Shown here: positions 5,929-24,195 of the stretch, piece by piece
Position numbering within the stretch: the first letter of the stretch is position 1
How the letters are laid out: each line of letters starts with the position of its first letter
Source of the DNA: an uncultured Clostridia bacterium
Lineage (GTDB): Bacteria > Bacillota > Clostridia > TANB77 > CAG-508
Assembly (NCBI GenBank): GCA_934183305.1
Contig: CAKPSF010000003.1
Span: forward strand, 10,673 to 74,672
Length of the DNA stretch: 64,000 nt
Direction of reading: 5' to 3'
Position numbers and translations under genes: made by a program
The notes under the pieces: model-generated
Told to the model about the DNA's origin: nothing
What the model saw: only the letters and a program-made list of their open reading frames with translations
Database searches by the model: none

Positions 5929-6591
5929 CTATAAATTTGTTTCTATAATATAGTTTAAATCTTCTATTGTTTTATCTATATTCATCATACCATTTCCAAT
6001 AGGATAATAAACTGGATACACTTTATACTCTACGTTAGATATGTTTTTTAAAAAATTTTGTTTTCTACATTGAGATACCGATATTTTTTTACCAAGTACA
6101 ATAGAACTCACTTGATTTCCAAAAGTTATAATTACCTTAGGATTAATTATTTCTATTTCTTTGTATAATAAGTCTAGATATTGATTATAAACCGAATTAG
6201 GTAATATTCTAGCATCTACTTGTGTACATTTTCCTAAATTAGTTATAAAGTATTTATGTTTCTCCACATTATCATATACTATATCGGCAAATTCTTCATC
6301 CCATTCCTGTGATTTTTTAGAAATAATATCATTATATATGTTTTCATCAAGTAGCCCTATTTTATAAAATAATTTCCATATATTTTTAGTTCCAATCCAA
6401 GGCGATCTTCTGCCTTTCCAACTTGGAACCGATGCAATATTCTTTCCAGTTGGATTCATAAAAATAAAACAAAAATCAGGATTATTAGTACAACCTCCAT
6501 TATATATAGATGTCAATTCTTTTGCTCCATACTGTAGCTGTAATTTGTCATATTCTGAATTTAATTCCTCTATTTTTGCTTTATGTAACAT
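5929..6591 (-). CDS. Uracil-DNA-glycosylase-superfamily-like protein (tentative)
   Basis: ITNLGKCTQVD and IITFGNQVSSIVLG resemble UDG family-4-type motifs. The canonical GEGPG motif is absent, so this is low confidence. Confidence 0.3.
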   Translation of the reverse strand: MLHKAKIEELNSEYDKLQLQYGAKELTSIYNGGCTNNPDFCFIFMNPTGKNIASVPSWKGRRSPWIGTKNIWKLFYKIGLLDENIYNDIISKKSQEWDEEFADIVYDNVEKHKYFITNLGKCTQVDARILPNSVYNQYLDLLYKEIEIINPKVIITFGNQVSSIVLGKKISVSQCRKQNFLKNISNVEYKVYPVYYPIGNGMMNIDKTIEDLNYIIETNL

Positions 6592-6621
6592 ATATACTTT
6601 TTCTCCTTTTATTTTTATCTA

Positions 6622-6939
6622 TTATATATTGAAGTCATTATTTATATAATCTGTATAATATATAACTTTCTTACCTAATTTTTTTGCATATTCTATTTCT
6701 AAATTTGTACTATTTCCAATATAATTATTTACATTTATTACTAATATAGCATCTGACAATTCTATCCTCTTAAAATGTGCTTGTTTTAGTTTTATCAGTT
6801 GTTCTTCTGTTATATTACTATTCTTTAACACTTGATAAACTGGTGTAAGAACACACTTGCCATCTAAAGCTAATTTTTGTGCAACTTCCATCATTTCTTT
6901 TTGAAATCTCATACTTCCACATAAAGTTATTATTTTCAT
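6622..6939 (-). CDS. Hypothetical small protein (nucleoside 2-deoxyribosyltransferase-like fold suspected)
   Basis: 105 aa, MKIITLCGSMRF...VLTPVY. The family call rests on weak resemblance only. Confidence 0.25.
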   Translation of the reverse strand: MKIITLCGSMRFQKEMMEVAQKLALDGKCVLTPVYQVLKNSNITEEQLIKLKQAHFKRIELSDAILVINVNNYIGNSTNLEIEYAKKLGKKVIYYTDYINNDFNI

Positions 6940-7090
6940 TTTACAATATTCTCTCCAAATTTTTACATATCTAATTCATATAATAGCACAAATATAATTC
7001 TAATGTAAACTATCTAATAAATAATTTTTCAAAAAAGAACTGATAATAAGTCACAATAAAAACCCCATAATATATGGGGTTTTTATATGC

Positions 7091-7351
7091 CTACTCATCG
7101 TCTTTAATTTCTTCAAAACGATATTTTTGAGTTGCATTTGGATATTTTTCATGATCAACTTCAGACAGAAACATACTTAACGGACGTGCATAGATTCCAT
7201 CTTTATGGTTTGTTTTGCCGTTATTGTCCATACAACAATAAACGACTAACTCTTCGCCTGTTTCACTATGTTTAGCCACTGTAATTACAAATGACCTTGC
7301 CCCTTTAAAATGTCTCCACATCGTAAACGGTTTTACTTCTCTGTTTTCCAT
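7091..7351 (-). CDS. DUF1653 domain protein
   Basis: [21 protein letters not shown]...[25 protein letters not shown]. Start re-assigned to ATG 7351 (RBS AAAGGAG 8 nt upstream). The track ORF 7091..7546 is an N-terminal over-extension. Confidence 0.6.
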
Positions 7352-7385
7352 AAAAAAATCTCCTTTAAAAAATTTATTTATTTTT

Positions 7386-7414
7386 TTTATATCACAAAAA
7401 ACAACAATTATCAA
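7386..7414 (-). promoter_or_regulatory. Putative sigma-A promoter (TTGATA-17-TATAAA) for the DUF1653 gene
   Basis: Read on the minus strand as TTGATAattgttgttttttgtgaTATAAA, about 35 nt upstream of the RBS. Confidence 0.35.
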
Positions 7415-7492
7415 GTGCTTTAAAAAATCATTTTTATTCTGGCAATTTATTATAATATAAAATTCATATAAACAAACCAAACAAATCGTGAC

Positions 7493-7521
7493 AAAGGAGG
7501 TCCTAACAAAGGACCTCCTTT
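7493..7521 (-). terminator. GC-rich hairpin (11-bp perfect stem), probable terminator of the small upstream gene
   Basis: AAAGGAGGTCC-taacaaa-GGACCTCCTTT lies 18 nt downstream of the stop at 7539. The U-tract on the minus strand is imperfect (UGUCACGAUUUGUUUGG); on the plus strand it is followed by TTATTTT. Confidence 0.45.
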
Positions 7522-7538
7522 TATTTTGCCTATGGAGT

Positions 7539-7703
7539 TTATTCATTTAGTTCTTCAGTAAATTCAAGAAGATAAATCGCAAGGGAGGTACTGATTTCAC
7601 CAGATTTCCAATTTCTTTTTAAAACATCATCTTCTGGTAAATTTTCTAATTGTTCCAACCGTTTCAAAAAATCTTTTACGTTTTTTTGCAATGAATCATT
7701 CAT
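7539..7703 (-). CDS. Hypothetical small protein (54 aa)
   Basis: Start ATG 7703 with RBS GGAAGGAG 10 nt upstream. The track start is TTG at 7757. Confidence 0.3.
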
Positions 7704-7839
7704 AAGTTGTTTACTCCTTCCTATGTTCGGAACTCCATATTTATGCAATAATACCAAGTGGTATTATACAATATTTATTATACATTAAAATTATATAAAA
7801 TGCAATTTCAAATATAATTTATCTTCTTGCTTCTTTCAC

Positions 7840-8005
7840 TTATTCTTTATACCAACCTTCACCGTCAACACAAATTAATATTTGTCCTCCGCCTTTAGTT
7901 GCATGGTGAATATGCCAATTGTTTCTACATTTAGGTTCAAATGTTACATTAGCCATAAATACACTTGTTTCTTTGTTGTTTCTCTACCCGCTGTTTGTTT
8001 TTCCA
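7840..8005 (-). pseudogene. Cupin-domain gene remnant (frameshifted and truncated)
   Basis: The frame MANVTFEPKCRNNWHIHHATKGGGQILICVDGEGWYKE* carries cupin motif 1 but lacks motif 2 and the C-terminus. A short ORF with RBS AGGAG (MEKQTAGRETTKKQVYG*) sits immediately upstream in another frame. Confidence 0.45.
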
Positions 8006-8020
8006 TATCAAATTTCTCCT

Positions 8021-8491
8021 TTACTTCAAACTATCAGTCCATTCTTTAATAACACTATCACTCACACTAGATGAAAATCTTCTGCCTTCAAGCCATGTTC
8101 CTCCATTTGCCATTGTTTCTAAATTTTTGCCACTTTGTCCCATTTCAGATGATGAAGATGTGCAAAATGGTATCACTGTTTTTCCTGTAAAATCATTATC
8201 TTTTACAAAAGTATTTACTGGCCAAGCAGCAATTCCCCACCATACAGGAGTTCCAAGTATAATTTCATCATATTTACTTAAATCGCAATTTATATCTTGT
8301 ATTTGTGGTAAATGATTACTTGCTTCGCTATTTTGTTCATCATTTACAACTGTATCATAATCATCTGAATATGGAATTACAGTTTTAATTTCTAAAATAT
8401 CACAATTTAGCTTTTCCTTTATTTTATTTGCTATCATTCTTGTATTTCCAGTATATGAAAAATATACTATTAATTTTTTATTATTTTCCAT
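8021..8491 (-). CDS. Flavodoxin family protein
   Basis: LIVYFSYTGNTRMIANKI is the FMN phosphate-binding loop, and GTPVWWG is present. Start re-assigned to ATG 8491 (RBS GGAGGT 8 nt upstream). Confidence 0.75.
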   Translation of the reverse strand: MENNKKLIVYFSYTGNTRMIANKIKEKLNCDILEIKTVIPYSDDYDTVVNDEQNSEASNHLPQIQDINCDLSKYDEIILGTPVWWGIAAWPVNTFVKDNDFTGKTVIPFCTSSSSEMGQSGKNLETMANGGTWLEGRRFSSSVSDSVIKEWTDSLK

Positions 8492-8504
8492 TATCAATTA
8501 CCTC

Positions 8505-8888
8505 CTACAAATCCTCTGTAAAATCTTTTCTTTTTCCTAAAGATATTTCTTCATAAAGTTTTATTTTATAGTTTAATTTATCTATTGTTGCATTTATATT
8601 TTCTTGTTTTTCTAATAATCTCTTTCTCTGTTCTTCTAGCAACTCTTTTCTTGCCGTAACAATACTTTTGCCTTTTTCAAACAACGACATGTATTCTATT
8701 AAAATCTCAATTCCAACTCCTGCATCTCTCATACATTTTATAAATTCAATTCGTTTGCAGGTCTTGTCGTCATAATTTCTAATACCATTTTTATTTCTTG
8801 GTACATTTGATATTAAGCCTATTCTTTCATAATATCTTAAGGTGTCAGGTGTTAAATTATATTTTTTTCCAACTTCTGCAATTGTCAT
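8505..8888 (-). CDS. MerR family transcriptional regulator
   Basis: N-terminal HTH MTIAEVGKKYNLTPDTLRYYERIGLI plus a coiled-coil C-terminus. Confidence 0.8.
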   Translation of the reverse strand: MTIAEVGKKYNLTPDTLRYYERIGLISNVPRNKNGIRNYDDKTCKRIEFIKCMRDAGVGIEILIEYMSLFEKGKSIVTARKELLEEQRKRLLEKQENINATIDKLNYKIKLYEEISLGKRKDFTEDL

Positions 8889-8965
8889 TTAATTATCCTC
8901 CTTAATATTATTTTATATATCACTTATAGTTAGCTCAAAGTCAATAGTTTTTTGTTAAATTTATA

Positions 8966-8999
8966 TAAAAAAATTAGATTAGCACCTTACTAATCTAAT
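8966..8999 (-). terminator. Rho-independent terminator
   Basis: On the minus strand: ATTAGATTAG-taaggtg-CTAATCTAAT (10-bp perfect stem) followed by UUUUUU, downstream of the hydrolase stop at 9007. Confidence 0.7.
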
Positions 9000-9006
9000 T
9001 TTCAAC

Positions 9007-9732
9007 TTATTGCTCTTTTAAAATTTTATCTAACCAATTATTATAATAATTCAATTGTTCTTCTGTATGAAAATAATGCTCACCATTTTCTAGTACTGTT
9101 AAATTGCAATTAAAATCTTTTATAAATCTCTCAATTGTTGCTCTATCTTGCATATTGTCTTTATCCCCATACAAAATATACGTTTTTTTATTCCAATTAG
9201 TTATTGGATTGTCCTTAACATATTTATAGTAATCCCAATATAAAGTTTGACCAAAATCTGTTTTAATTTCTTGTTTTTCTTTTAATTTTTCTTCTGTTGT
9301 ATTACTCCATAGCATCATATTATCAATGATGACCTTCATATTAATAACTGGGGATAAGAACACACCTTGTTTAATGTCTTCGTCTTTATATGCTAATAAA
9401 CTAAAATATGCTCCCATGCTACAAGCCCATAAATTTATTTCTTCGTAATTTAACTTTGCATATTCTATAATTTGTTTTAGGTCTTTTACACAATTTTGAA
9501 CTTTGCATAAATATTTATTTTCTTCTTTTCTTTCTCCATGTTCTGGTAAATCGAAACTCAATAATTGGTAACCTTTACTCACTACTTTATCTGCTAATAT
9601 TTTTATAACTTCATCTTCTTTATTAGACATATTTCCATGTACTGCTATAAAAACTTTACTACTTTTTTCTCCCCAAATTATTGATGGAATATTATTTATT
9701 TTTATTCTTTCTATTTTCATTTTTTCCCTCAT
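9007..9732 (-). CDS. Alpha/beta hydrolase
   Basis: HGNMSNKED..., nucleophile elbow ACSMGA (GxSxG), about 240 aa. Confidence 0.7.
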   Translation of the reverse strand: MREKMKIERIKINNIPSIIWGEKSSKVFIAVHGNMSNKEDEVIKILADKVVSKGYQLLSFDLPEHGERKEENKYLCKVQNCVKDLKQIIEYAKLNYEEINLWACSMGAYFSLLAYKDEDIKQGVFLSPVINMKVIIDNMMLWSNTTEEKLKEKQEIKTDFGQTLYWDYYKYVKDNPITNWNKKTYILYGDKDNMQDRATIERFIKDFNCNLTVLENGEHYFHTEEQLNYYNNWLDKILKEQ

Positions 9733-9776
9733 AAATCACTATTTTTCTAACAAACTACATAAATTGTAATTTGTAT

Positions 9777-10574
9777 TTATCTTTTCTTAACAGGAAATTG
9801 AATCTCTGTTAAATAATCTTCTTCATTTTCTTTATTCCAACATCCATCAATATAACATTCTCTCGCATTATCTATTATCTCATATCCATTATCTTCAATG
9901 TATTTTAAAATAATATTATAAGAATCTCTTAAATTATTATAAGCTCCTTTATGATAAATACATACTGCTGTAATAGGATTTGATTTCATAAATTTAACAC
10001 TATCAGTTTCATTTCCTAATTTTTCTACTGCTTGTGCATATCTAATCTTAATATCTTTTTCTTTGTATTCTCCATCTAAATAACTGATATAACAATAATC
10101 TGGGTTTATGCACTTTAAGTTTGGATTTGCTTTTGCACATTCTGTTCCTGCTTGTAAAACAAATTCTGTAATTTTACTAAAATCCTCTATCATTCCATCA
10201 CGATAATAAATAATGTAACTTGGAATGTCTTTGATAAAAATCTCATTTTTCATATTATTTTCCTCCAATAAATAATTTATTTTAGAAAGCTCAATATTAA
10301 AATTAGCAATATTTTTCTCAATTTCATTTTTTCTTTTATTAAGAATTAACGACATATCTTGTCCATCTAAAACTTTTTTAATGTCTTTAATTGATAAACC
10401 TATTTGCCTTAAGGATATTATCTTTGAAATATCAACTAACTGACTACTTTCATAATACCTATAACTCGTATTTTGGTCTATAAAAACAGGTTTTAATAAT
10501 CCTTCTTTTTCATAGTATCTTAATGCCTTTATGGTGGTTTTAGACATTTTAGAAAAATCTCCTATTTTATACAT
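9777..10574 (-). CDS. MerR family regulator with C-terminal GyrI-like/effector-binding domain
   Basis: MYKIGDFSKMSKTTIKALRYYEKEGLL is a MerR HTH; the roughly 150-aa C-terminal domain is BmrR/Mta-like. Start ATG 10574 with RBS GAGGAGG 6 nt upstream; the track start is TTG. Confidence 0.75.
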   Translation of the reverse strand: MYKIGDFSKMSKTTIKALRYYEKEGLLKPVFIDQNTSYRYYESSQLVDISKIISLRQIGLSIKDIKKVLDGQDMSLILNKRKNEIEKNIANFNIELSKINYLLEENNMKNEIFIKDIPSYIIYYRDGMIEDFSKITEFVLQAGTECAKANPNLKCINPDYCYISYLDGEYKEKDIKIRYAQAVEKLGNETDSVKFMKSNPITAVCIYHKGAYNNLRDSYNIILKYIEDNGYEIIDNARECYIDGCWNKENEEDYLTEIQFPVKKR

Positions 10575-10593
10575 ATCTTGCCTCCTCAAATTA

Positions 10594-10624
10594 TTTATAC
10601 AACCTACTCTAAGGGGAGAGTCAA
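10594..10624 (-). promoter_or_regulatory. MerR-type promoter: TTGACT -35, 19-bp spacer with ACTCT/AGAGT dyad, TATAAA -10
   Basis: Read on the minus strand as TTGACTctccccttagagtaggttgTATAAA, directly upstream of the MerR/GyrI gene. The 19-bp spacer is the hallmark of MerR-activated promoters. Confidence 0.45.
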
Positions 10625-10659
10625 TATCTTTTAATGAAATTTTTTAAATTATTAAATTA

Positions 10660-11376
10660 CTATTTTTTCTTTAGAACAATAGCAATAAAGTTTAAATATT
10701 TACATGCTCCTGCTTCAATTGCTTTTCTGTCTCCTTTAGAATATTCATTATCGCATTGTATCCAGTCATTCCAACATTCTTCATTACTTTCCATTTGATA
10801 AATAGAAATAATCTCACTATCCTTTGATTTTGAAACAATATTTTTCCAGTAGTCCACATCATGAATGTAGTCTAATTGTTCAGGTGTCCAAGATAAAAGT
10901 AGCTCTTTTGGAATATTATTATGGCAGTCTTTTTTCATTCCAGGAACTGCAATATATATATATCCTCCTTTTTTAACAAAAGGTAAAAGCTTTTCGTCTA
11001 GGTATTTTTCATCTCTTCCAAAGTAGTTATAAGAATCTGTGCTAACTACTGCATCAAAAAATTCTTTTTCAAACTTTAAGTCTGTTGCATCTGCTTTAAC
11101 AGGAATAATTTGCTTATCTGTTAATCCCATCTCAGTAAAAAATTTTCTATTTTCTTCGGGATCACTCCATAAATCTGCAGCATACACTTTAAATCCATAT
11201 TCTCTGGCTAGAAAAATAGATGTAATTCCTTGACCGCTTCCTAAATCCATAACAACAGAATCTTTTTCTATTTTATTGTCTTTCATAAGTTCTTCTTCTA
11301 ATTTTAATGGGTTAGGCCCCATAATTTTTTGGTTTATTATATCAATGTTATACTTTTTAGTTTTCTCATAATTCAT
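10660..11376 (-). CDS. Class I SAM-dependent methyltransferase
   Basis: Motif I VMDLGSGQGITSIFLA, acidic residue AADL, about 240 aa. Confidence 0.75.
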   Translation of the reverse strand: MNYEKTKKYNIDIINQKIMGPNPLKLEEELMKDNKIEKDSVVMDLGSGQGITSIFLAREYGFKVYAADLWSDPEENRKFFTEMGLTDKQIIPVKADATDLKFEKEFFDAVVSTDSYNYFGRDEKYLDEKLLPFVKKGGYIYIAVPGMKKDCHNNIPKELLLSWTPEQLDYIHDVDYWKNIVSKSKDSEIISIYQMESNEECWNDWIQCDNEYSKGDRKAIEAGACKYLNFIAIVLKKK

Positions 11377-11431
11377 TTTTCATATTCTCCTTTATTATAT
11401 TACTCTTCATCTTTAATAATATTTTTACTTC

Positions 11432-11632
11432 CTATATATCTATGTTTAAGGTTGCAACTTCGCTATTTTCAAAATTTATTGTTTCTATTTGGTCTGTCAC
11501 TTTTTTATGTTTTAATCCTAAAGCACTTGCCAGACCATAAACACCTTTTAATATAGCAGATATTATAGTAATTATAAGAAAAATTGCAAAAGCTGTTGCT
11601 ATATATTTTATTATTTTTTGTGCTCTTGTCAT
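11432..11632 (-). CDS. Small membrane protein (66 aa)
   Basis: One TM (IATAFAIFLIITIISAIL). Its start overlaps the stop of the upstream LiaF-like gene. Confidence 0.35.
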   Translation of the reverse strand: MTRAQKIIKYIATAFAIFLIITIISAILKGVYGLASALGLKHKKVTDQIETINFENSEVATLNIDI

Positions 11633-12312
11633 TTTATTTCAATACCTCCAAATACCGCTGTACCATTTATATAAATTGTATGGCTATTTTCGTCTGCTTT
11701 TGTATTTGCTTTATTTTCTACTCCACCAAATATAGGCATTGATTTAATTTTAATTTTTACATTTGAAGGTACACGAATTTCTATTCCTCCAAATGTACTA
11801 CTTGCATTAATAACAACATCTGACTCTATAATTGCATTTCTTAAATCACATTTAACTCCACCAAATACTGCTGTTAAATCTGCTCCTGTAAATTTTTCTT
11901 CATCAAATTTTACATTTTGGCTTGCAAATGTTGCACAATATGAATTTTCTCCATTTCTTTTTTCGTTTAATTTCTTTATTTCAGCACTTACTTTTCCACC
12001 TAATGTATCTTTAAAAATAATTGATAAACCAATTATAACTAAAATAGTTGGAAATGCCAATTTCAATATTAAATCAAAATCTAAAATATTTTGACATCCT
12101 AAAAGCAAGGCTACACCAATTAATAATCCAATTAAATTTCCTGTTTTCTCATTATCTCTAAATAAGCCTATAAAACATGGTATGATAATAAAAAGCGTCC
12201 ACCATCCATCAAAAAATATATTAATATTTGTTATACCTAGCGCATTTCCTCCAAATATTACTCCTATAATTATTAAAACTACTCCCCACAATATGTTACT
12301 AAAATTTTTCAT
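11629..12312 (-). CDS. LiaF-like protein (N-terminal LiaF-type TM domain plus C-terminal DUF2154/toast-rack domain)
   Basis: Two or three N-terminal TM helices, then the repeating FGG(V/I)E pattern (TAVFGGVKCD, STFGGIEIR, MPIFGGVE, TAVFGGIEIK) typical of LiaF/YvqF C-domains. Confidence 0.5.
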   Translation of the reverse strand: MKNFSNILWGVVLIIIGVIFGGNALGITNINIFFDGWWTLFIIIPCFIGLFRDNEKTGNLIGLLIGVALLLGCQNILDFDLILKLAFPTILVIIGLSIIFKDTLGGKVSAEIKKLNEKRNGENSYCATFASQNVKFDEEKFTGADLTAVFGGVKCDLRNAIIESDVVINASSTFGGIEIRVPSNVKIKIKSMPIFGGVENKANTKADENSHTIYINGTAVFGGIEIK

Positions 12313-12419
12313 TTTTAATTTTCCTCCTTTTTATTTAACATATATTTGTTATCTTTTTCTTCCAATAGCATTAAAGCTTGAAATTCATATGATAATAAAT
12401 CTTGTATTTGTGTTTATTT

Positions 12420-13343
12420 TTAAGCTACAAATGAATCTGGTTTTTGAGCTCTTGGAGTTTTATAATAAGTTTCACTATAATCTGGTATAAAATCTTTAAT
12501 AGGTATTAATGTATAGTCTTTTAATATTACATATTTATATGTAAATGTTAATACTTCGTCATAATATTTACTCATAAGTTCACTTTTCATTGTTGTTGTA
12601 GTTGGTCCATTGCCTGTATAATAACTATATATTTCATAAAAGCCTTTGTCTGTTTTTAATATTTTTTCATTATATATTCTAATTATTTTTTCTCCTTCAA
12701 AGTTTCCTTTTACTTCTGTTAAATTAGCTGGTTTTTCATAATCATGTACATATAATTTATTATCTTTTACAATTAATTCATTCGCAACAAAATCATAAGA
12801 TTGTTTTTTTCCAAGATAAAGCTCTGAATATGATTCTATATAACTCTTTTGAAATTTGTATTTTGCTAATGTATAGCTTTCATAAGATGTTCCAGCTCTT
12901 TTATTATCAAGATTTTCGTCATATAATTTATATATTGTATCCTTTGTATCTACAAATTCTATATCTGCTCCCAAACTTGGTTTTATATTTAGTATTTTTA
13001 TATTGCTTGGAACATCATATACTTTTTGATATATAAAGTTTCCTTCATTTAGTTTGTTTGCATCAAAAATATACAAGCCATTATTTGTAGTAAAAGTATA
13101 TTCTGTAAACATTGATTCCTGATTTAAAATTTCTGCTCCACTACTAATTTTTTTATAACTATTTACATCTTTATTATTTTTTTGCGCAACTGCTTCTACC
13201 AAATTTTGTGGTTCTTTGTTAACAGATGTTGTTTTATTTTGTTTTTTATTTGATGAAATTAAAATAACAAATGTAACAACTAAAATTAAAACTAAAATTA
13301 CTATTCCAAATATTATCTTCTTATTTTTAAAAAAATCTTTCAT
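12420..13343 (-). CDS. Hypothetical membrane-anchored protein (307 aa)
   Basis: N-terminal TM anchor IIFGIVILVLILVVTFVILI, followed by a Tyr/Lys-rich extracellular region. Confidence 0.4.
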   Translation of the reverse strand: MKDFFKNKKIIFGIVILVLILVVTFVILISSNKKQNKTTSVNKEPQNLVEAVAQKNNKDVNSYKKISSGAEILNQESMFTEYTFTTNNGLYIFDANKLNEGNFIYQKVYDVPSNIKILNIKPSLGADIEFVDTKDTIYKLYDENLDNKRAGTSYESYTLAKYKFQKSYIESYSELYLGKKQSYDFVANELIVKDNKLYVHDYEKPANLTEVKGNFEGEKIIRIYNEKILKTDKGFYEIYSYYTGNGPTTTTMKSELMSKYYDEVLTFTYKYVILKDYTLIPIKDFIPDYSETYYKTPRAQKPDSFVA

Positions 13344-13391
13344 ACTAATTAATCCCCTTATTTTTTATAATTATATTTTTGTTACTACTTA

Positions 13392-13745
13392 TTAATCAAA
13401 TTGTGTTTGCCAGTTTTCATTATTAGAAGCTTCAAAACACATTTTAATCTGTTCTTTACTTGTTTTTTCTTCTGCTAAGTTAGTTGGTAGTTCTTCTAAT
13501 GAAAAGTATTTTATTTCAGTTGTTTCAATATTTTCAACAAATTTTCCACCAACAACATTGCATAAAACAAATACTTTGCATATGCCATAAGCATATTGTG
13601 GTTTATTATGTTTGTTCCTATCTTGGATAGCAATTATTTTTACTGTTTCAATATCTAGTCCTGTTTCTTCCTTTACTTCTTTTATTGTATTTCCATTGCT
13701 CATTTTAACCATTTTTCCATTTTCATAACCTCTAACCTTACTCAT
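13392..13745 (-). CDS. N-terminally truncated NUDIX paralog (possible pseudogene)
   Basis: Retains only the distal Nudix box (TIKEVKEETGLDIE) and the C-terminal half. There is no GGxxExGE, and the upstream in-frame extension is blocked by the stop of the preceding gene 8 nt away. Confidence 0.4.
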   Translation of the reverse strand: MSKVRGYENGKMVKMSNGNTIKEVKEETGLDIETVKIIAIQDRNKHNKPQYAYGICKVFVLCNVVGGKFVENIETTEIKYFSLEELPTNLAEEKTSKEQIKMCFEASNNENWQTQFD

Positions 13746-13753
13746 TTCATAAA

Positions 13754-14170
13754 TTAACTTTTTGTATCACATTTTAAGAACTCTTTAATTTGCCTTATTA
13801 TATGAGGAATATTATAGTTTCCAGCAAACTTATCATTATTTAGCAAACCATCGTCAATTTTAACCCATTCTAATTTGTTTTTTTCTTCTACTAATTTAAC
13901 TTCATTTTCTAGAATACCATAATATACTTGTAAATTGTTTTCATATTTAAAATAATTTAAATCCATAAAATGATCTAACTTAATATCAGTATTACTGATT
14001 CCAGTTTCCTCAAATAACTCCCTATAAGCTGCATTATCATTGCTTTCTCCTTCTTCTACTTTTCCTCCAACGAAGTTATACATTCCTTTATATGGTTCTT
14101 TTGCCCTTATACAAAAAAGGCAATCACTTAAATCTTTATTAAATACAACTATTAAATTTAGTTTTCTCAT
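13754..14170 (-). CDS. NUDIX hydrolase
   Basis: Complete Nudix box GGKVEEGESNDNAAYRELFEETGI. ATG start with GAGGT RBS. Confidence 0.8.
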   Translation of the reverse strand: MRKLNLIVVFNKDLSDCLFCIRAKEPYKGMYNFVGGKVEEGESNDNAAYRELFEETGISNTDIKLDHFMDLNYFKYENNLQVYYGILENEVKLVEEKNKLEWVKIDDGLLNNDKFAGNYNIPHIIRQIKEFLKCDTKS

Positions 14171-14206
14171 AATGTTTTACCTCAAATTTTATTTTATAAC
14201 AAATTA

Positions 14207-14235
14207 TTTATAACATAAATTTAATTATTTATCAA
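14207..14235 (-). promoter_or_regulatory. Sigma-A promoter TTGATA-17-TATAAA for the NUDIX pair
   Basis: Read on the minus strand as TTGATAaataattaaatttatgtTATAAA, about 30 nt upstream of the NUDIX RBS. Confidence 0.45.
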
Positions 14236-14247
14236 TTAGCATTTTAT

Positions 14248-14284
14248 ATATTTTAAAAATACTACCAGTAAAACTGATAGTATT
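14248..14284 (-). terminator. Hairpin/terminator between the GMK-like gene and the NUDIX promoter
   Basis: On the minus strand: AATACTA-tcagttttactgg-TAGTATT (7-bp stem) followed by UUUUAAAAUAU. Confidence 0.35.
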
Positions 14285-14304
14285 CTATTTAAAGCTTTTA
14301 TTTT

Positions 14305-14751
14305 TCAAACATCTTTTTTTATTTTTTCTAATATTTCCTGAGGTGAATATTCAGACGTATTAATTACTAGATTTGCTGAATCTGGTATATATATTGAGTC
14401 ACCAGAAGTTATCCTGCAATTAATTTCATCTTCATCAATTCCCCTTGCTAATAACCGTTTATATGTTTCTTCCTTTGAGCACCATAAATGTACCCAACAA
14501 GTAGAAGGACAAATACTTACAATTTTCTTGGCAATTGTAATTGATACTGGAGATGCACAATACCCACTTTTATTTAGGCAATCTAACCAAGATTTCGGCG
14601 TTCCATAATATTGTCCTAAATTTTTAAGTAGTGCAAATTCAAGAGATGGTTCTAGATACTCATTTTTATTAAAATTTTCAATAAATTGTTTGGTATTAAT
14701 AAAAATAGCATCTATTCCATTCCGCTCTCCTTTTCTTGGTTTTCTAGTCAT
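14305..14751 (-). CDS. Guanylate-kinase-like domain protein lacking the P-loop
   Basis: MTRKPRKGERNGIDAIFI aligns with Gmk TTRxPRxGExDGxDYxFV (the post-P-loop region). YYGTPKSWLDCLNKSGYCASPVSI aligns with YYGTSKEAVEEVLASGKDVILDI. RLLARGIDEDEINCRI aligns with RLxxRGxDSEEVIxKR. The first in-frame start is this ATG, with a TGA 10 codons upstream. There is no GxxGxGKS and no obvious SD. Confidence 0.55.
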   Translation of the reverse strand: MTRKPRKGERNGIDAIFINTKQFIENFNKNEYLEPSLEFALLKNLGQYYGTPKSWLDCLNKSGYCASPVSITIAKKIVSICPSTCWVHLWCSKEETYKRLLARGIDEDEINCRITSGDSIYIPDSANLVINTSEYSPQEILEKIKKDV

Positions 14752-14790
14752 GTGAGAAAGATTTATATAAATATATATCTTTCAATTTAT

Positions 14791-16215
14791 TTAACTTATT
14801 TTTTTCTTTAACTCTTCAATTAATTTGCTATCAAAATTCCTTTTTTCTTCATCTGACATTTCATCCCAATTTTTTCTTCTATTATTAGATTCAAACACCG
14901 CTCCCAATGGATAACCTGTTCCATTATATTCTTTATTTAAGTTTTCTTTATTTAAACGTCCATTATTTATATTTTTTATTAATTTAGTTTCACCATTTGG
15001 AAATGCAATTGCTATGTTTTGTTCAAAGTGGCATGTATAATCTTTTAAATTTTTAGTCTTTTCTTTTAAATAATTCCAAAATTGCTCATTTGTTGCATTA
15101 TCTGGAAGCTGTCCTCCCCATCTTCTGGTTGCTACACCTGGCTCACCTTTTAATTCGTGAATAAAGAATCCGGTATCATCTCCGATAGTAATAAGCCCAC
15201 TTATTCCACACCATGTTCTAGCTTTTGCAATAGAATTTTCTTCAATTGATGTTGTTCCTTCAATTACATCAATATCATCTTCGTAATCTTTTAATGTTAA
15301 AGTTTCATATTCATCACCCAAATATAATTTATAATCAGCTATTTTAGATGGATTTTTGGAAGCAATTAATATTTTCTTTTTATTTGCAGGTAATATAATT
15401 GGGCAAAACCTTTTTTTAATATATTTTGAATATTCATCTAAATTTTCAAAATATGGTACTGATATAAGTAATTTTAAATTAAAATTTAAATTGTCTTTAA
15501 TTTTATTCAAAATTATTCGTTCATTATCCATTCTCTTTGATATTGTAATTTTTCCCATATCTTTTGAATCTCTTACAAATAAAAGCCATGGTTCTATTCT
15601 TCTTTCCAATAAAGTTTCCACGCCACTTTGGATAGTTTTTGTTTTTATGTACTCCCCATTATAAGAGGCTTCGCTTAACAAAATAACTTTAGATAAGCCT
15701 TCACTTTTTAACCTTTGAATCATAGGTGTAAATATAGGATCAACCTCTGGGTCTGTAATTAATCCTCCAATTTCAATAAATAGTTTTGAAGGTTTTCCAA
15801 TATTGCTCCACATTTTATGTATTCTATACTCAACATATAATGACATGTGAGGATTTATTTGAAGATTTTCGTTTTCACCATATTCATTTATAAAATCACG
15901 GTATAGTTCTCCTCCTAATAAATAATGTTCTCTTCCCCATGTTTTTCCTTTATTGTATTTCTCGTAAATGCCGAAATCATCATGTCCAATAGCCGTATGT
16001 CTACCATTTGCATTTGTATTTAATAAACCATCAAACTTTATTGCATCAGAGCCTTCTGTATTTGCAAGTAATTGAGCAACTAAAGTTCCTTTTCCAATAT
16101 CGGATCTTGGGTATCCTAGTACAAAATAATATTCAATATTTTCGTTAGGTTTATACATTTCTATTAAATTATTTAATTGTCTAATTGTTTTTCTGTTTTC
16201 ATAAACTCCACTCAT
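14791..16215 (-). CDS. Fusion protein: CTP-synthase N-terminal (synthetase/amidoligase) domain homolog plus divergent Ham1/ITPase-like domain; no glutamine amidotransferase domain
   Basis: Residues 30-270: [23 protein letters not shown] aligns with PyrG [37 protein letters not shown] aligns with [21 protein letters not shown] aligns with VVLVEIGGTVGDIE. Residues 280-474: [13 protein letters not shown] aligns with RdgB KVVLATGNVGKV, and IAKARTW...[25 protein letters not shown] aligns with ILKARHA...[24 protein letters not shown]. No GATase Cys/His motif anywhere. ATG start with RBS AAAGGAG. Confidence 0.55.
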   Translation of the reverse strand: [474 protein letters not shown]

Positions 16216-16326
16216 ATTCAGACAACTCCTTTATGAAAAAAATTTGTTTATATATTTTACCACGTTTTTTCTTCATAATATGTCGAAACATGTTTTGTTT
16301 AATTTTATTTTTAAATTATGTTTCTG

Positions 16327-17310
16327 TTAGTTTTCTATAAATTTTTGAGTTATAAATATTTTATCTAATGTATTTTGCTTAGCATTATTTATTATAACTT
16401 GTATAACATAACTTAAGTTTCTTTCAATATATTCTTGTAAGTCTTTTTTATCTACTATTGCATCTTCACAAATTTCTTTATAAGCCTTGATAATTATTTT
16501 CTCTATCTCTTCTTTTTTCTTATTTTTTAATAGTTTATTAATTTCATTTAATTCAAAACCAGTAATTTCTAAATCGTATATATTTCTTTTTGCTAGTTTA
16601 CAAGCAATTACTTCAAATAAAACTATCTCAAAAATATTTATAATTAGGTCTTTATAATCTTCACTATAAGCATATAATAATCGTTCTATTTTTTCACTTA
16701 AAAAAATATTACAGAATTCGTTTTCTAAATAAATAGAATATACATATTCTTTTATAAATTCTACCCCATCTAGCTTTCCTAGCAAATTATTATATAGTGG
16801 ATAATCAGCAGTAATTTTCATATCATGTGCTTTAAAGTCTGGGTTATATATTTTCAAAAAACCTTGTATTCCTCCAATAATTGTATCGTTATAGGTTTGA
16901 TTATTGGTTTTTAATTTATTTTGTTTCACTTTTGCATATATTACCCTAATTATATTTAACATTCTATCTATCTGCTTTCTTCCGTTGTAATAAAGTTCAT
17001 TTAAATTACTCTTTTTTATTTTTTCTAATGCTGCATCAGGATTATTAAAAGTTTTAAGATACATACTAATAGTGTAATAATTTGATTTATTTATTTCTTC
17101 TACAACTTCTTTTCGTACCGAACTATTATCTATTCCATTGTATTTATATATTTTTTCATCCAATAGCTGTATAATATTCATTTGTAGATTTATAATTTCA
17201 TTTTCTGTAATCATTCCATTATTGTATGCATCTTTAATTAAACTTTCAAAATAATCTTTGTCATCTAAATTCGACCTGTTAATTTTACTTTTAATTTCAA
17301 GTTTATTCAT
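16327..17310 (-). CDS. Hypothetical protein (327 aa) of a Firmicutes two-gene DUF pair
   Basis: No recognisable catalytic motif. Start re-assigned to ATG 17310 (the track start is GTG at 17319). It overlaps the stop of the upstream 17303.. gene by 8 nt, which suggests translational coupling. Confidence 0.4.
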   Translation of the reverse strand: MNKLEIKSKINRSNLDDKDYFESLIKDAYNNGMITENEIINLQMNIIQLLDEKIYKYNGIDNSSVRKEVVEEINKSNYYTISMYLKTFNNPDAALEKIKKSNLNELYYNGRKQIDRMLNIIRVIYAKVKQNKLKTNNQTYNDTIIGGIQGFLKIYNPDFKAHDMKITADYPLYNNLLGKLDGVEFIKEYVYSIYLENEFCNIFLSEKIERLLYAYSEDYKDLIINIFEIVLFEVIACKLAKRNIYDLEITGFELNEINKLLKNKKKEEIEKIIIKAYKEICEDAIVDKKDLQEYIERNLSYVIQVIINNAKQNTLDKIFITQKFIEN

Positions 17311-17770
17311 AGTCTTCACCTACTTCTATATAATCTATTACTTCTCCATTTAATATTCTCTGTTTCATCTCATACATAATTGTTCCAGATAGATACTCTG
17401 TATCTCCTTTACACACACCATTAAAAGCTGTTTTCATAAATTTTATCAATTCATCATCTGTAACTAAATCCATCGTTTCATTTTTATATTCATAAAAAAT
17501 ATCTAATAAATTATATAAAGTTAACACATAGTTTTCTTGATTAATATATGGTGAATCGCAAAACTCTTTTATAATTTTATCTATTATTCCAGTTCTAAAC
17601 TCAATTCTCCCTGTATTTTTCAATATATCTATTCTTTTTTCCATTAAACTTTCTATTTGTGTATCACTTAGTGTTAAACCATACTTATTAGTGAATTCAT
17701 TACACTTTTTTATATTAGCTACTTCAATTTGTCTTTTGTTATTTATTATTTCTAAATAAGAATTTTCCAC
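17303..17770 (-). CDS. Hypothetical protein (about 155 aa), first gene of the DUF pair
   Basis: GTG start either way: 17770 is preferred because AGAGGTG lies 6 nt upstream, while 17779 abuts the RBS. No known motif. Confidence 0.35.
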   Translation of the reverse strand: MENSYLEIINNKRQIEVANIKKCNEFTNKYGLTLSDTQIESLMEKRIDILKNTGRIEFRTGIIDKIIKEFCDSPYINQENYVLTLYNLLDIFYEYKNETMDLVTDDELIKFMKTAFNGVCKGDTEYLSGTIMYEMKQRILNGEVIDYIEVGEDYE

Positions 17771-17860
17771 TTCAAACACCTCTTATTTTATATAACATAT
17801 TTATATATAAAATAACAGTCTTGAATTTTTTCTCATTTTGTGGTATAGTAATTATAGTAA

Positions 17861-17906
17861 AAAAGAGAGAAAACACTAAAAACCAAAGTATTTTCTCTCT
17901 TTTAAT
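17861..17906 (-). terminator. Rho-independent terminator downstream of ogt
   Basis: On the minus strand: AAAAGAGAGAAAA-(17-nt loop)-TTTTCTCTCTTTTTT, immediately after the ogt stop at 17970. Confidence 0.55.
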
Positions 17907-17969
17907 TTTTTGCATTTCAATATTTATTTTTTTGCACTTGCATTATAAGTTTCTTCTAAAATCTCACTA

Positions 17970-18497
17970 CTATTTGTAGATTTTAGGTACAGTAAATTTA
18001 CTCATATCATTTTTTTCTATTTCTAGAAGTTTTATCTTATTTTCCATTCCTCCACCATATCCAGTAAGAGATCCATTTGTTCCAACAATTCTATGGCATG
18101 GAATTATTATACATATTGGATTCCAGCCTACTGCTCCTCCAACTGCTTGTGCAGACATTCTTTTTATCCCATTATTTTTTGCAATTTCTTTTGCTATATC
18201 ATTATATGTAATAGTTTCTCCATATGGAATTTTATTCATAATATCTATAACTTGTTTTCTAAATGGTGTTAGATTCTCAATTTTATACTTAGGTGTAAAA
18301 TTTGGAATATCACCACCAAAGTATATGTCTAACCATTTTTCAGTTAAATCAAATATTGGTAATTCTTTTTCTTCAAATTCTTCCATATGCTTAGAGGAAT
18401 CTTTTGACTTTTCAAACCAAAGTCCTGTTAAAAACTCTCCATCGCTTTGCATATAAATTATTCCAAGTGGTGAATTATATTCTTTTTTGTAAAACAT
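17970..18497 (-). CDS. ogt: Methylated-DNA--protein-cysteine methyltransferase
   Basis: Active-site PCHRIVGTNGSLTGYGGG. Start ATG 18497 with RBS AAGGAG; the track start is GTG. Confidence 0.8.
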   Translation of the reverse strand: MFYKKEYNSPLGIIYMQSDGEFLTGLWFEKSKDSSKHMEEFEEKELPIFDLTEKWLDIYFGGDIPNFTPKYKIENLTPFRKQVIDIMNKIPYGETITYNDIAKEIAKNNGIKRMSAQAVGGAVGWNPICIIIPCHRIVGTNGSLTGYGGGMENKIKLLEIEKNDMSKFTVPKIYK

Positions 18498-18516
18498 AAA
18501 TTTAATCTCCTTTAGT

Positions 18517-19248
18517 TTATTTATTATCACTTATCATCTTTCTCTTAAATATTATAATAGATAAAATCAAAACAGCAATAGTATAACATGAAAAAATCAA
18601 AATATTTTTATTTGTTATTATTTCTATGTTATTATTCATAACTCCCTTTATTATTTTAACTGCAGCTTCAAATGGTAAATATTCACAAACATTTCTAAAG
18701 AATCCTCCAAGCATTTCTGACGGAAAATATATTCCACTTGTAAAGCACACTAATTGCACTACTATACTTGATATTCCGGATGATGCTTTTTCTGTAAATA
18801 TGCTGCCAATTAATATTCCAATTGATATAAATAATATTGAAATAATAATAGAAATTAGTATCGCTAATATTATATTAATGCTAAATTGTAGACCTAGACA
18901 AATTGCAAGTATAAAGAACAATATCTCTTGAATTAATATGATTGGTATAAGTGATAACATATATCCTAAAATATAGTCTATAGCTTTCATTGGACTTACA
19001 CCTAACCTAATTAATAGTGATGTCGTTCTATCTTTTGAAATAAGTGTTGCAGTAAAAAGTGTTATAAATGAAAATCCAAAAACTATTATTCCAGGAGTAA
19101 AGTTCTCTAGCTTGTAATTATCACTTGGTATATTAAATTGTTGAAAAATAAATAGTAAAAATAAAGGTAGTATAATTGCAAATATTAAACTTAAAGGATC
19201 TCTAATTAATTCTTTAAAATTTCTTTTTGAAAAATTTAATATTCTCAT
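18517..19248 (-). CDS. ABC-2 type transporter permease
   Basis: Six predicted TM segments. Its start overlaps the stop of the upstream ATPase gene (ATGA). Confidence 0.6.
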   Translation of the reverse strand: MRILNFSKRNFKELIRDPLSLIFAIILPLFLLFIFQQFNIPSDNYKLENFTPGIIVFGFSFITLFTATLISKDRTTSLLIRLGVSPMKAIDYILGYMLSLIPIILIQEILFFILAICLGLQFSINIILAILISIIISILFISIGILIGSIFTEKASSGISSIVVQLVCFTSGIYFPSEMLGGFFRNVCEYLPFEAAVKIIKGVMNNNIEIITNKNILIFSCYTIAVLILSIIIFKRKMISDNK

Positions 19249-23893: not shown

Positions 23894-23979
23894 TGGTGGG
23901 CAGGGATGGATTCGAACCATCGTACTCAAATGAGAATAGATTTACAGTCTACCGCCTTTAGCCACTCGGCCACCTGCCC
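23894..23979 (-). tRNA. tRNA-Tyr (anticodon GTA), type II long variable arm, CCA encoded
   Basis: Reverse complement GGGCAGGTGGCCGAGTGGCTAAAGGCGGTAGACTGTAAATCTA...GGTTCGAATCC...CCCACCA. Cloverleaf checked by hand. Confidence 0.9.
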
Positions 23980-24013
23980 TTATTCTTTTATCTAATACTA
24001 GTAGATAAAAGAA

Positions 24014-24090
24014 TGGTCCGCCCTCTAGGATTCGAACCTAGGACCCACCGGTTATGAGCCGGTTGCTCTGACCAACTGAGCTAAGGGCGG
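24014..24090 (-). tRNA. tRNA-Met or tRNA-Ile2 (anticodon CAT), CCA encoded
   Basis: Reverse complement CCGCCCTTAGCTCAGTTGGTCAGAGCAACCGGCTCATAACCGGTGGGTCCTAGGTTCGAATCCTAGAGGGCGGACCA. The C1-G72 pair and non-GGG anticodon stem argue against initiator tRNA. Confidence 0.85.
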
Positions 24091-24121
24091 TTGTTAACTT
24101 TCTATAAAATCAAAAAAAGTC

Positions 24122-24195
<74 letters not shown>

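Follow-up and report, generated by a model that had tools for sequence, protein, structure and literature searches.

A rare fusion of a glutaminase-less CTP-synthase-like amidoligase with a Ham1-like domain, and its separable guanylate-kinase-like partner, in an uncultured Clostridia bacterium

What might a CTP synthase do once its glutaminase has been exchanged for a domain related to nucleoside triphosphate (NTP) pyrophosphatases? The question is raised by a gene encoding 474 amino acids (aa) at 14791..16215 of a 64,000-nucleotide (nt) stretch of contig CAKPSF010000003.1 (positions 10,673 to 74,672), from an uncultured Clostridia bacterium; we call this whole stretch the window, and all of the features described in it lie on its minus strand. 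To our knowledge, CTP synthase (PyrG) is regarded as an obligate two-domain glutamine amidotransferase. An initial annotation, made from the letters of the sequence, had read the product as a PyrG synthetase domain without its glutaminase half, fused to a Ham1-like domain and followed by a guanylate-kinase (GK)-like open reading frame (ORF) that lacks a P-loop, and had suggested that these proteins might re-aminate deaminated nucleotides. Judged by its ORF, its Pfam matches, its homologues and an AlphaFold2 (AF2) model, the protein is a rare, conserved and uncharacterised putative enzyme, a glutaminase-less paralogue of CTP synthase that carries a Ham1-like domain in the glutaminase position.

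Both domain calls and the missing glutaminase half were borne out. Pfam places CTP_synth_N at aa 30-240 (E 1.1e-10; 41.8 bits vs. a cutoff of 26.1) and Ham1p_like at aa 282-461 (E 2.5e-25; 89.9 bits vs. 22.5). NCBIfam recognizes the same two families, with scores far under the equivalog cutoffs for both PyrG (TIGR00337, 27.2 bits vs. 462.75; NF003792, 28.4 vs. 308) and Ham1 (NF011397, 87.7 vs. 234; TIGR00042, 67 vs. 145). No glutamine amidotransferase domain was detected in the 474-aa protein by Pfam, NCBIfam or Foldseek; true PyrG controls do show the GATase domain. A sequence search of the PDB led from the N half to CTP synthases and from the C half to Ham1/RdgB. The AF2 model of the fusion, for which 36 homologues served as input, has a predicted local distance difference test score (pLDDT) of 90.2 and a predicted template-modelling score (pTM) of 0.88, and with it Foldseek retrieved E. 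coli CTP synthase (1s1m, E 8e-13) and the Ham1/RdgB structures 4bnq and 2q16 (TMt 0.75-0.81). The fusion is conserved across homologues, and a literature search for CTP synthase fused to Ham1 found no paper that describes such an architecture.

The amidoligase half (aa 1-275; 15391..16215) was characterized by alignment of 36 family sequences with identities down to 32% (alignment A1), by alignment to Thermus thermophilus CTP synthase and by Foldseek; residue numbers are those of the window protein. Its motifs are the P-loop S38-D-I-G-K42-G-T44, E148-I-G150-G151, K191-T-K193 and R215. Invariant in alignment A1 are P36, D39, G41, K42, G43, T44, K60, D62, N66, D80, Y84, G102 and F108 in the N part and, further on, E148, G150, G151, D155, E157, E182, K191 and Q196. 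Residues were mapped through the T. thermophilus alignment and then read against Drosophila melanogaster CTP synthase (dmCTPS), for which a 2.5 Å structure with the 4-phospho-UTP intermediate supplies the residue roles (PMC8325340). In this mapping, K42 and K60 are the two lysines that contact the transferred phosphate (dmCTPS K16 and K38), D80 and E148 the Asp and Glu of the metal/water network (D70 and E145), D62 the Asp that hydrogen-bonds the uracil (D40), D155 and E157 the ribose-binding Asp/Glu pair (D152 and E154) and K191-T192-K193 the Lys-Thr-Lys triphosphate clamp (K192-194) (PMC8325340). R215 aligns to the ATP-ribose Arg of CTP synthase, and the set known from E. coli PyrG (K18, K40, D72, E140, G142/G143, D42, D147, E149 and K187-T-K189) is matched in the fusion. 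Because the catalytic and NTP-binding residues of PyrG are all kept, this half holds an intact apparatus for activating, at the expense of ATP, a lactam oxygen of a ribonucleoside triphosphate.

The fusion thus shares with PyrG (EC 6.3.4.2; PF06418; E. coli residues 1-266) the fold, the GKG P-loop, the catalytic Lys/Lys/Asp/Glu, the Gly-Gly motif, the uracil-contacting Asp, the ribose Asp/Glu and the Lys-Thr-Lys clamp, and for this reason PyrG-like chemistry, in which the lactam oxygen is phosphorylated and the carbon then aminated, is most likely. Unlike PyrG, it lacks the class-I glutaminase and with it the use of glutamine, the ammonia tunnel and the site for activation by GTP; about 12 residues of the ammonia-tunnel gate loop (E. 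coli 50-68) are deleted, with a family-specific NGRHT motif instead, and profile scores across the family are very low. CTP synthase accepts exogenous NH3 and also NH2OH (PMC9138612). Given this tolerance and the missing glutaminase, ammonia or another small amine from solution would be the likely nucleophile, and the conversion of UTP, ATP and NH3 to CTP is the reaction predicted by default from homology.

The second half (aa 276-474; 14794..15390) is a divergent Ham1-like domain, as judged by Pfam, NCBIfam, Foldseek and alignments with S. aureus Ham1 and E. coli RdgB. It has the fold of Ham1/RdgB/ITPA (EC 3.6.1.66; PF01725), with a template-modelling (TM) score of 0.8 to S. aureus Ham1 and E. 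coli RdgB, and most fusion members share (S/T)xNxxK, the Mg-binding Glu, DD(S/T)G and GxPG. The window protein retains S286-K-N288-P-S-K291 (the NxxK motif), the Mg-binding E319, D346-D347 and EPGV. Whereas the known enzymes stand alone as homodimers, the domain is here fused to another enzyme, and the base-recognising motifs SHR and FGYDP have been replaced: family-wide by xDK and G(Y/F)P(L/I)G..F, respectively, and in the window protein by F-D-S and a 10-residue stretch (432-441). The initial annotation had noticed that the Asp of FGYDP is not conserved; the S. aureus Ham1 and E. coli RdgB alignments confirm the loss of FGYDP, and SHR proved to be lost as well. The specificity pocket of ITPase is built from the SHR triplet, with an indispensable Arg178 in contact with the 6-keto oxygen, and GTP is kept out by Phe149 (PMC5075207). 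Since SHR (with Arg178) and the equivalent of Phe149 are absent family-wide, specificity for ITP or XTP is not to be assumed, and the suggestion that this domain binds them found no support.

One clade (P0066, P0069-P0074 and L024) has lost both the Lys of NxxK and the Asp-Asp pair and keeps all of the amidoligase residues. Whatever the Ham1 domain does in every member must therefore be something other than catalysis: binding, allostery or scaffolding. The capacity to hydrolyse is probably kept in most lineages, including that of the window protein, which has a complete predicted pyrophosphatase core. Two loci (L021 and L024) carry an additional Ham1-like paralogue beside the fusion, without SHR or FGYDP; the second Ham1 gene of L021 was considered as a canonical housekeeping ITPase and was rejected on account of these missing motifs.

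The fusion belongs to a small family. Among 5.8 billion proteins searched, 80 relatives were found, nearly all of them 475-500 aa long with the same two domains and identities down to 33%, and the few that are named are annotated only as 'non-canonical purine NTP pyrophosphatase'. When the N half alone was compared by HMMER with 1.84 billion cluster representatives, 58 matched at E<=1e-3 and 32 at E<=1e-10; the matches include some eight fusions (~480 aa) and some fifteen proteins that stand alone (274-316 aa), and canonical PyrG surfaces only at E ~1e-5. On the Pfam model, canonical PyrG scores 336-353 bits vs. 20-50 bits for the fusion family. One fusion cluster comprises 2,072 member sequences. 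A GTDB scan with one genome per species (185,579 species genomes), limited to two peptide patterns, yielded 20 loci. Thirteen are labelled Saccharibacteria/Saccharimonadales (TM7) or binned with them; the others include Nomurabacteria and Paceibacterota, three low-GC gut 'Clostridia/Bacilli' metagenome-assembled genomes (MAGs), one Nanoarchaeial MAG and two Actinomycetota (L019 and L020), the last being distant stand-alone homologues in high-GC sequence where naive ORF calling is unreliable. The locus L001 comes from a Hadza-gut Clostridia MAG, and its protein is 96% identical to that of the window. The ratio of nonsynonymous to synonymous substitution rates (dN/dS) between these two fusion genes is 0.058, which argues for strong purifying selection on the fusion in the window lineage.

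In a neighbour-joining tree the Firmicutes clade is nested within Patescibacterial diversity, beside mammal-associated TM7, and the GC content of the fusion gene tracks that of each host's flanks. The family appears to be horizontally mobile and patchy across phyla. Viral contigs of IMG/VR, scanned with the fusion alignment, held no relative. PADLOC gave no match for the fusion or the GK-like protein, only the NUDIX neighbour matching candidate PDC-S07, and a PHROGs scan of the fusion and the kinase returned nothing informative. Literature searches that paired Saccharibacteria or Patescibacteria with CTP synthase or pyrG found nothing relevant, and a paper on Saccharibacterial metabolism gives no pyrG status. 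The comparison of the fusion and its neighbours across genomes, which the initial annotation had proposed, thus describes a conserved but rare family in which the GK-like kinase is the recurrent neighbour.

What, then, is the GK-like gene that follows the fusion? Downstream of a 39-nt spacer (14752..14790) lies an ORF of 148 aa (14305..14751) whose matches to guanylate kinase profiles begin only at profile position 36-38 and which scores 42.6 bits on TIGR03263, vs. an equivalog cutoff of 160.45. As had been noticed from the sequence, it starts past the point where the P-loop should be, and the nearest in-frame stop stands exactly 10 codons upstream of its ATG. The L001 orthologue is 182 aa long and starts MLNSFIVTGASASGKSTL, and all other lineages have orthologues of 180-200 aa with the Walker A motif GASASGK(S/T). 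DNA alignment with L001 and the blastn break points place in the window spacer a clean 174-nt deletion (junction 14757/14756), which took away the AAAGGAGA ribosome-binding site as well as the original ATG and the initial 32 codons of the gene; these codons carry FIVTGASASGKSTL. The present ATG (14751) is an internal Met of the conserved 'PTHMTR' and has no Shine-Dalgarno sequence ahead of it. The identical ORF, with the same 39-nt spacing, is present on at least 15 contigs of independent assemblies, and we therefore rejected an assembly artefact as the origin of the deletion. The loss of the P-loop is not ancestral, as the other truncations in the subfamily differ in their break points or are frameshifts. 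Judged by these alignments, the window ORF is a 5'-truncated remnant of a normal partner kinase. The absence of a P-loop accordingly describes the window ORF, but not the family, in which it is a strain-specific loss; likewise, the gene is a decayed remnant in this strain but is conserved across genomes, and it is not a duplicated gmk.

The full-length form is modelled by AF2 with a pLDDT of 92.3 and matches guanylate kinases only, at TM scores of 0.7-0.8. It shares with Gmk (EC 2.7.4.8; PF00625, TIGR03263) the fold, Walker A, the T(T/M)RxxR arginines, the guanine-site Glu, YYG(T/S) and three lid arginines; G14, K15, R35, R38, E41, E66, Y80, Y81, G82, R131, R135 and R145 are common to the two. 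It is ~30% identical to Gmk and forms a subfamily of its own (E 1e-29 or better internally vs. 1e-11 or worse to true Gmk), whose genes mostly accompany the fusion; 2-6 residues are inserted ahead of YYGT, and the C-terminus is shorter than in Gmk. Missing from the subfamily, too, are the Tyr of GxxYxF and the LDID Asp, these motifs reading GIDAIF and CASPVS instead. A family that has Walker A and the catalytic arginines of nucleoside monophosphate (NMP) kinases does not fit the earlier suggestion of a P-loop-less ligand-binding partner resembling the GK domains of MAGUK proteins. It is hard to credit that the 148-aa form of the window works with the fusion as a functional nucleotide-binding subunit of that kind. 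In its favor, the ORF is unbroken, shares the reading frame of the fusion and is repeated on the contigs mentioned above, and its dN/dS vs. L001 is 0.10, a value drawn from only 14 substitutions in a comparison that includes the intact-gene branch. However, it was born of a deletion that also removed the ribosome-binding site, it has lost strand 1, the P-loop, helix 1 and strand 2 of the fold core when compared with the full-length AF2 model, and Walker A is present in all other lineages of the family. The other short form, P0115 (146 aa), was considered as an independent P-loop-less isoform and rejected, since its P-loop DNA is still there, intact, and a frameshift at an A8 homopolymer accounts for the short ORF.

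No gene other than the kinase recurs beside the fusion. The two are adjacent in 11 of the 18 non-redundant fusion loci, with the kinase on either side, and a kinase-based metagenome search gave 37 subfamily loci, 25 of which have the fusion next to the kinase gene; this conserved adjacency supports the idea of the GK-like gene as a partner. In three loci (L021, L025 and L027) the kinase gene overlaps the start codon of the fusion. Losses of the kinase take several forms. Only the C-terminal 75 aa remain in L014, and the ORF is split in L015. An A8 homopolymer after the kinase ATG shifts the P-loop out of frame in L035 (812-827) and L036, two independent samples, and may be either a slip-strand on/off switch or the mark of a pseudogene. 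In an oral TM7 clade (L005-L012 and L063-L073) the kinase is truncated at its 3' end and the lid arginines are gone.

The oral TM7 lineages also provide the reciprocal case, in haplotypes that share a site between a 140-aa ORF and pyrD. One haplotype (L005, L008 and L009) has a 3'-truncated GK-like gene and an intact fusion, and in another (L051, L053, L058 and L061) the fusion is absent and the GK-like gene intact; L058 has a Fic-domain gene inserted at the site. Kinase dN/dS in the fusion-less haplotype is 0.26-0.28, and fusion dN/dS in the oral TM7 clade is 0.24-0.49, on fewer than 20 substitutions of each kind. As the two genes are often linked yet each has been lost separately, it seems likely that the fusion and the kinase cooperate and that each can do without the other. 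Another GMP kinase must exist in the TM7 lineages whose copy is dead, suggesting that the GK-like protein is not the housekeeping Gmk of TM7.

Loci in which the amidoligase is not fused provide a further view of the association. In the Nanoarchaeial locus L018 the amidoligase-like and Ham1-like proteins are encoded by separate genes of one cluster, and in L017 the genes that accompany a stand-alone amidoligase encode an unrelated, YjjX-family NTPase (E 6e-25) as well as NUDIX and NDK-like proteins. The clustering of the split genes and the pairing with a second NTPase give independent support to the link between the amidoligase and Ham1 halves. The L018 cluster (6061-16335) runs from genes for a MiaA-like P-loop protein, a radical SAM protein, a class-V aminotransferase, the amidoligase-like protein and an unknown 301-aa protein to the Ham1-like gene, a thermosome subunit and a canonical PyrG. 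This PyrG is 566 aa long, matches 1vcm at E 1.6e-161 and lies 3.8 kb from the amidoligase-like gene; among the loci of the family, for which the flanks were covered, L018 alone has a canonical PyrG there.

Stand-alone amidoligases in L017 (6782-13861) and L028 (3322-9782) follow, in conserved order, a pyridoxal phosphate (PLP)-dependent decarboxylase, the NDK-like gene and a gene for a 310-aa protein. Downstream are found either the YjjX NTPase, NUDIX, GNAT and APH genes or an Ldh_2 gene, a PEP_mutase-family gene and two NUDIX genes. The conserved 310-aa protein (motif GSVEYGF...DDVD) matched nothing in PDB or Pfam. The decarboxylase hints that these clusters may serve a pathway with an amine nucleophile other than ammonia. 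A homologue of the GK-like protein (39% identity) in L062 (1178-3546) directly follows radical-SAM and CYTH-domain genes, with no fusion nearby, and possibly represents a different nucleotide-modifying context for the kinase subfamily. In the Patescibacterial locus L023 (3400-13589) the fusion is inserted between ruvA and ruvB, with ruvC, recA and recX nearby, and a nucleoside 2-deoxyribosyltransferase-like gene (Pfam E 1.2e-6) takes the place of the GK-like gene.

We give roughly even chances to a reading of the fusion as an NH3-dependent, ATP-driven amidoligase that acts on a ribonucleoside triphosphate and belongs to an accessory module for salvage or pool editing, rather than as a housekeeping CTP synthase. 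From the conserved residues, the N half would bind ATP at its P-loop and the ribonucleoside triphosphate at a PyrG-like site, with the Asp/Glu pair at the ribose hydroxyls, the Lys-Thr-Lys clamp at the triphosphate and the Asp at the ring NH. By homology, the gamma-phosphate of ATP would then be transferred to the lactam carbonyl of the base, which in PyrG is O4 of UTP, and with neither a glutaminase domain nor a glutaminase partner, free ammonia or a small amine would attack the activated carbon. The Ham1-like domain, which takes the position of the glutaminase and has a nucleotide-binding fold in every member, would bind some other NTP and usually hydrolyse it to NMP and pyrophosphate (PPi); it might clean up wrong products, process the product or act as an allosteric nucleotide sensor. 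A built-in cleaner is conceivable because an open ammonia site can also accept hydroxylamine. In most genomes, a co-transcribed NMP kinase of the GK fold would feed the pathway from NMP through the diphosphate to the NTP; in the window the kinase has lost its function to the 174-nt deletion, and purifying selection on the fusion is still strong.

Several observations weigh against this reading. The kinase is not an obligate partner, having decayed independently in the window lineage, in L014, L015 and L035 and in the oral TM7 clade, and the sister oral-TM7 haplotype keeps an intact kinase with the fusion lost. The coexistence with PyrG comes from one genome, L018, where the two halves are split and not fused. 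The pTM of the model (0.88) is the one guide to how the two domains of the fusion are placed relative to each other, and its base specificity, its nucleophile and what its Ham1 domain does are inferences. The fusion of oral TM7 adjoins pyrD (DHO_dh, E 1e-53), which is a pyrimidine-pathway context. Finally, a plain CTP-synthase role becomes more likely if the Saccharibacteria that carry the fusion lack pyrG.

Such a role is at the centre of an explanation in which two housekeeping activities have simply been joined: an NH3-dependent CTP synthase that replaces PyrG in reduced genomes, an ordinary NTP pyrophosphatase, and as neighbour a paralogous guanylate kinase. The retention of the full PyrG catalytic and UTP-binding set, including the uracil-contacting Asp, is what this explanation would expect, as are the ability of CTP synthase to run on free NH3 (PMC9138612), the hosts, which are mostly nucleotide-scavenging Patescibacteria, the pyrD gene next to the fusion in oral TM7 and the guanine-contacting Glu and YYGT motif kept by the GK-like protein. 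We nevertheless consider it rather unlikely. A housekeeping PyrG is hard to reconcile with scores of 42 bits on Pfam vs. ~340 and 27 vs. 463 on TIGR00337, with the rare and patchy occurrence of the family (32 representatives at E<=1e-10, and 20 loci in the two-pattern scan of 185,579 species genomes) or with the canonical PyrG alongside the amidoligase-like gene in L018. The family is also found in gut Firmicutes, hosts that would be expected to carry pyrG, a closely related TM7 haplotype has lost the fusion, and the Ham1 half has no ITPase signature and is catalytically dead in one clade. For the base in the accessory reading, UTP to CTP stays the default by homology, a choice that suits the pyrD gene beside the fusion in oral TM7, and a 6-oxopurine or modified pyrimidine NTP is also possible; the 6-oxopurine is kept in consideration by associations with ITP/XTPase-type proteins of two folds, the contacts kept in the kinase and some repair-gene neighbours. 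More specifically, the amidoligase might aminate the lactam carbonyl of an NTP other than UTP, with the Ham1-like domain handling substrate or product and the GK-like kinase feeding the matching NMP, a proposal that we regard as unlikely; ITP to ATP, XTP to GTP, GTP to 2-amino-ATP and an N4-substituted or otherwise modified pyrimidine NTP are the candidate reactions.

The re-amination of deaminated purine NTPs (ITP to ATP or XTP to GTP), as first proposed for this locus, is a doubtful minority hypothesis. Under it the Ham1 domain would capture these NTPs and the kinase would supply IDP or XDP from IMP or XMP. The amidoligase is repeatedly linked to two unrelated families of ITP/XTP hydrolases, Ham1 (fused or separate) and, in L017, YjjX/NTPase_I-T, and in chemical terms the C6 carbonyl of hypoxanthine corresponds to C4=O of uracil. 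PurA is a relative of the PyrG synthetase domain with the same phosphoryl-transfer chemistry, which also counts for this hypothesis. The GK-like kinase keeps the Glu and Thr and has lost the LDID Asp; from the structure of yeast guanylate kinase with GMP, we take the former two to read N1-H and O6 of a 6-oxopurine and the Asp to read the 2-amino group. MGMT (methylated-DNA-protein-cysteine methyltransferase), MutT-like NUDIX or ruvABC/recA genes lie near several loci, but such repair genes do not recur as neighbours, many lineages do without the kinase, and nothing indicates that a purine fits a PyrG-type pocket. Moreover, the fused Ham1 domain is without the features that define ITP recognition, SHR with its essential Arg178 and the equivalent of Phe149 (PMC5075207).

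More doubtful still is the production of a non-canonical nucleotide for conflict or signalling, such as an N4-substituted CTP, for which the kinase would feed substrate as CMPK2 does for viperin and the Ham1 domain would protect the producer or process the product. The patchy, horizontally transferred distribution fits such a role, and so do the dedicated NMP kinase, the NDK-like gene of the stand-alone variants, the possible amine source offered by their PLP-dependent decarboxylase together with NUDIX, GNAT and APH genes, and the GK-like homologue beside radical-SAM and CYTH genes in L062. However, PADLOC matched neither the fusion nor the kinase, IMG/VR viral contigs contained no relative, neighbours of defence type are not recurrent, and the decarboxylase is missing from fusion-type loci. 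The viperin-CMPK2 pair and the phage Z-base set (PurZ, MazZ and a kinase) do resemble the module in placing a kinase and/or an NTP pyrophosphatase beside a nucleotide-altering enzyme. This is a functional analogy only, since the core enzymes are not homologous, and no link to a virus or a known defence system was found for the fusion.

Of these explanations we favor the accessory amidoligase. The natural swap of a glutaminase for a pyrophosphatase-like domain implies that the synthetase half can evolve alone, and the fusion is a compact candidate for ammonia-only CTP synthesis or for a new NTP amination. Saccharibacteria are nucleotide-scavenging epibionts, and the fusion may bear on how they balance or clean their nucleotide pools. 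If the true activity is an amination that does not yield CTP, these ultra-small symbionts would have a new way to interconvert or repair nucleotides. The kinase deletion of the window, the reciprocal losses in TM7 and the clade with a dead Ham1 domain are natural knock-outs that offer genetic contrasts.

The remaining genes around the module vary among lineages. Downstream of the kinase remnant is a MutT-like NUDIX hydrolase of 138 aa (13754..14170; Pfam NUDIX E 6e-14, MutT models E 1e-10). It adjoins the module in L001 and L029-L032 and not in other lineages, so that any tie to the module is tentative. The next ORF (13392..13745; 117 aa) is the remnant of a 204-aa Nudix_N+NUDIX gene. A blastn break reveals that this second gene was shortened by a 278-nt deletion with its junction near 13685-13692; the intact L001 counterpart is ORF 12669-13283, with its Pfam domains. 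Because L032 has the kinase deletion and still keeps Nudix_N, the 174-nt and 278-nt deletions must have arisen independently. Directly upstream of the fusion, on the same strand, are a DUF6323/DUF6179 pair and an MGMT gene (16327-18530). In L016 (Saccharimonadales), too, an MGMT gene (8896-9411) lies upstream of the fusion, there by 0.6 kb, which may be coincidence.

A scan of 12300-18700 gave promoter counts not above those of shuffled sequence and found no terminators. About 5.3 kb of L001 (15237-20563) is missing from the window at ~11436-11439, L001 having gained it or the window having lost it. The GC content of the region is 27%, and its sizeable genes are all on the minus strand. In the window as a whole, 46 of 46 ORFs of at least 200 aa lie on that strand and the GC skew is negative throughout. 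Genes for tRNA-Tyr(GTA), tRNA-Met(CAT) and tRNA-Gly(TCC) are clustered at 23894-24195.

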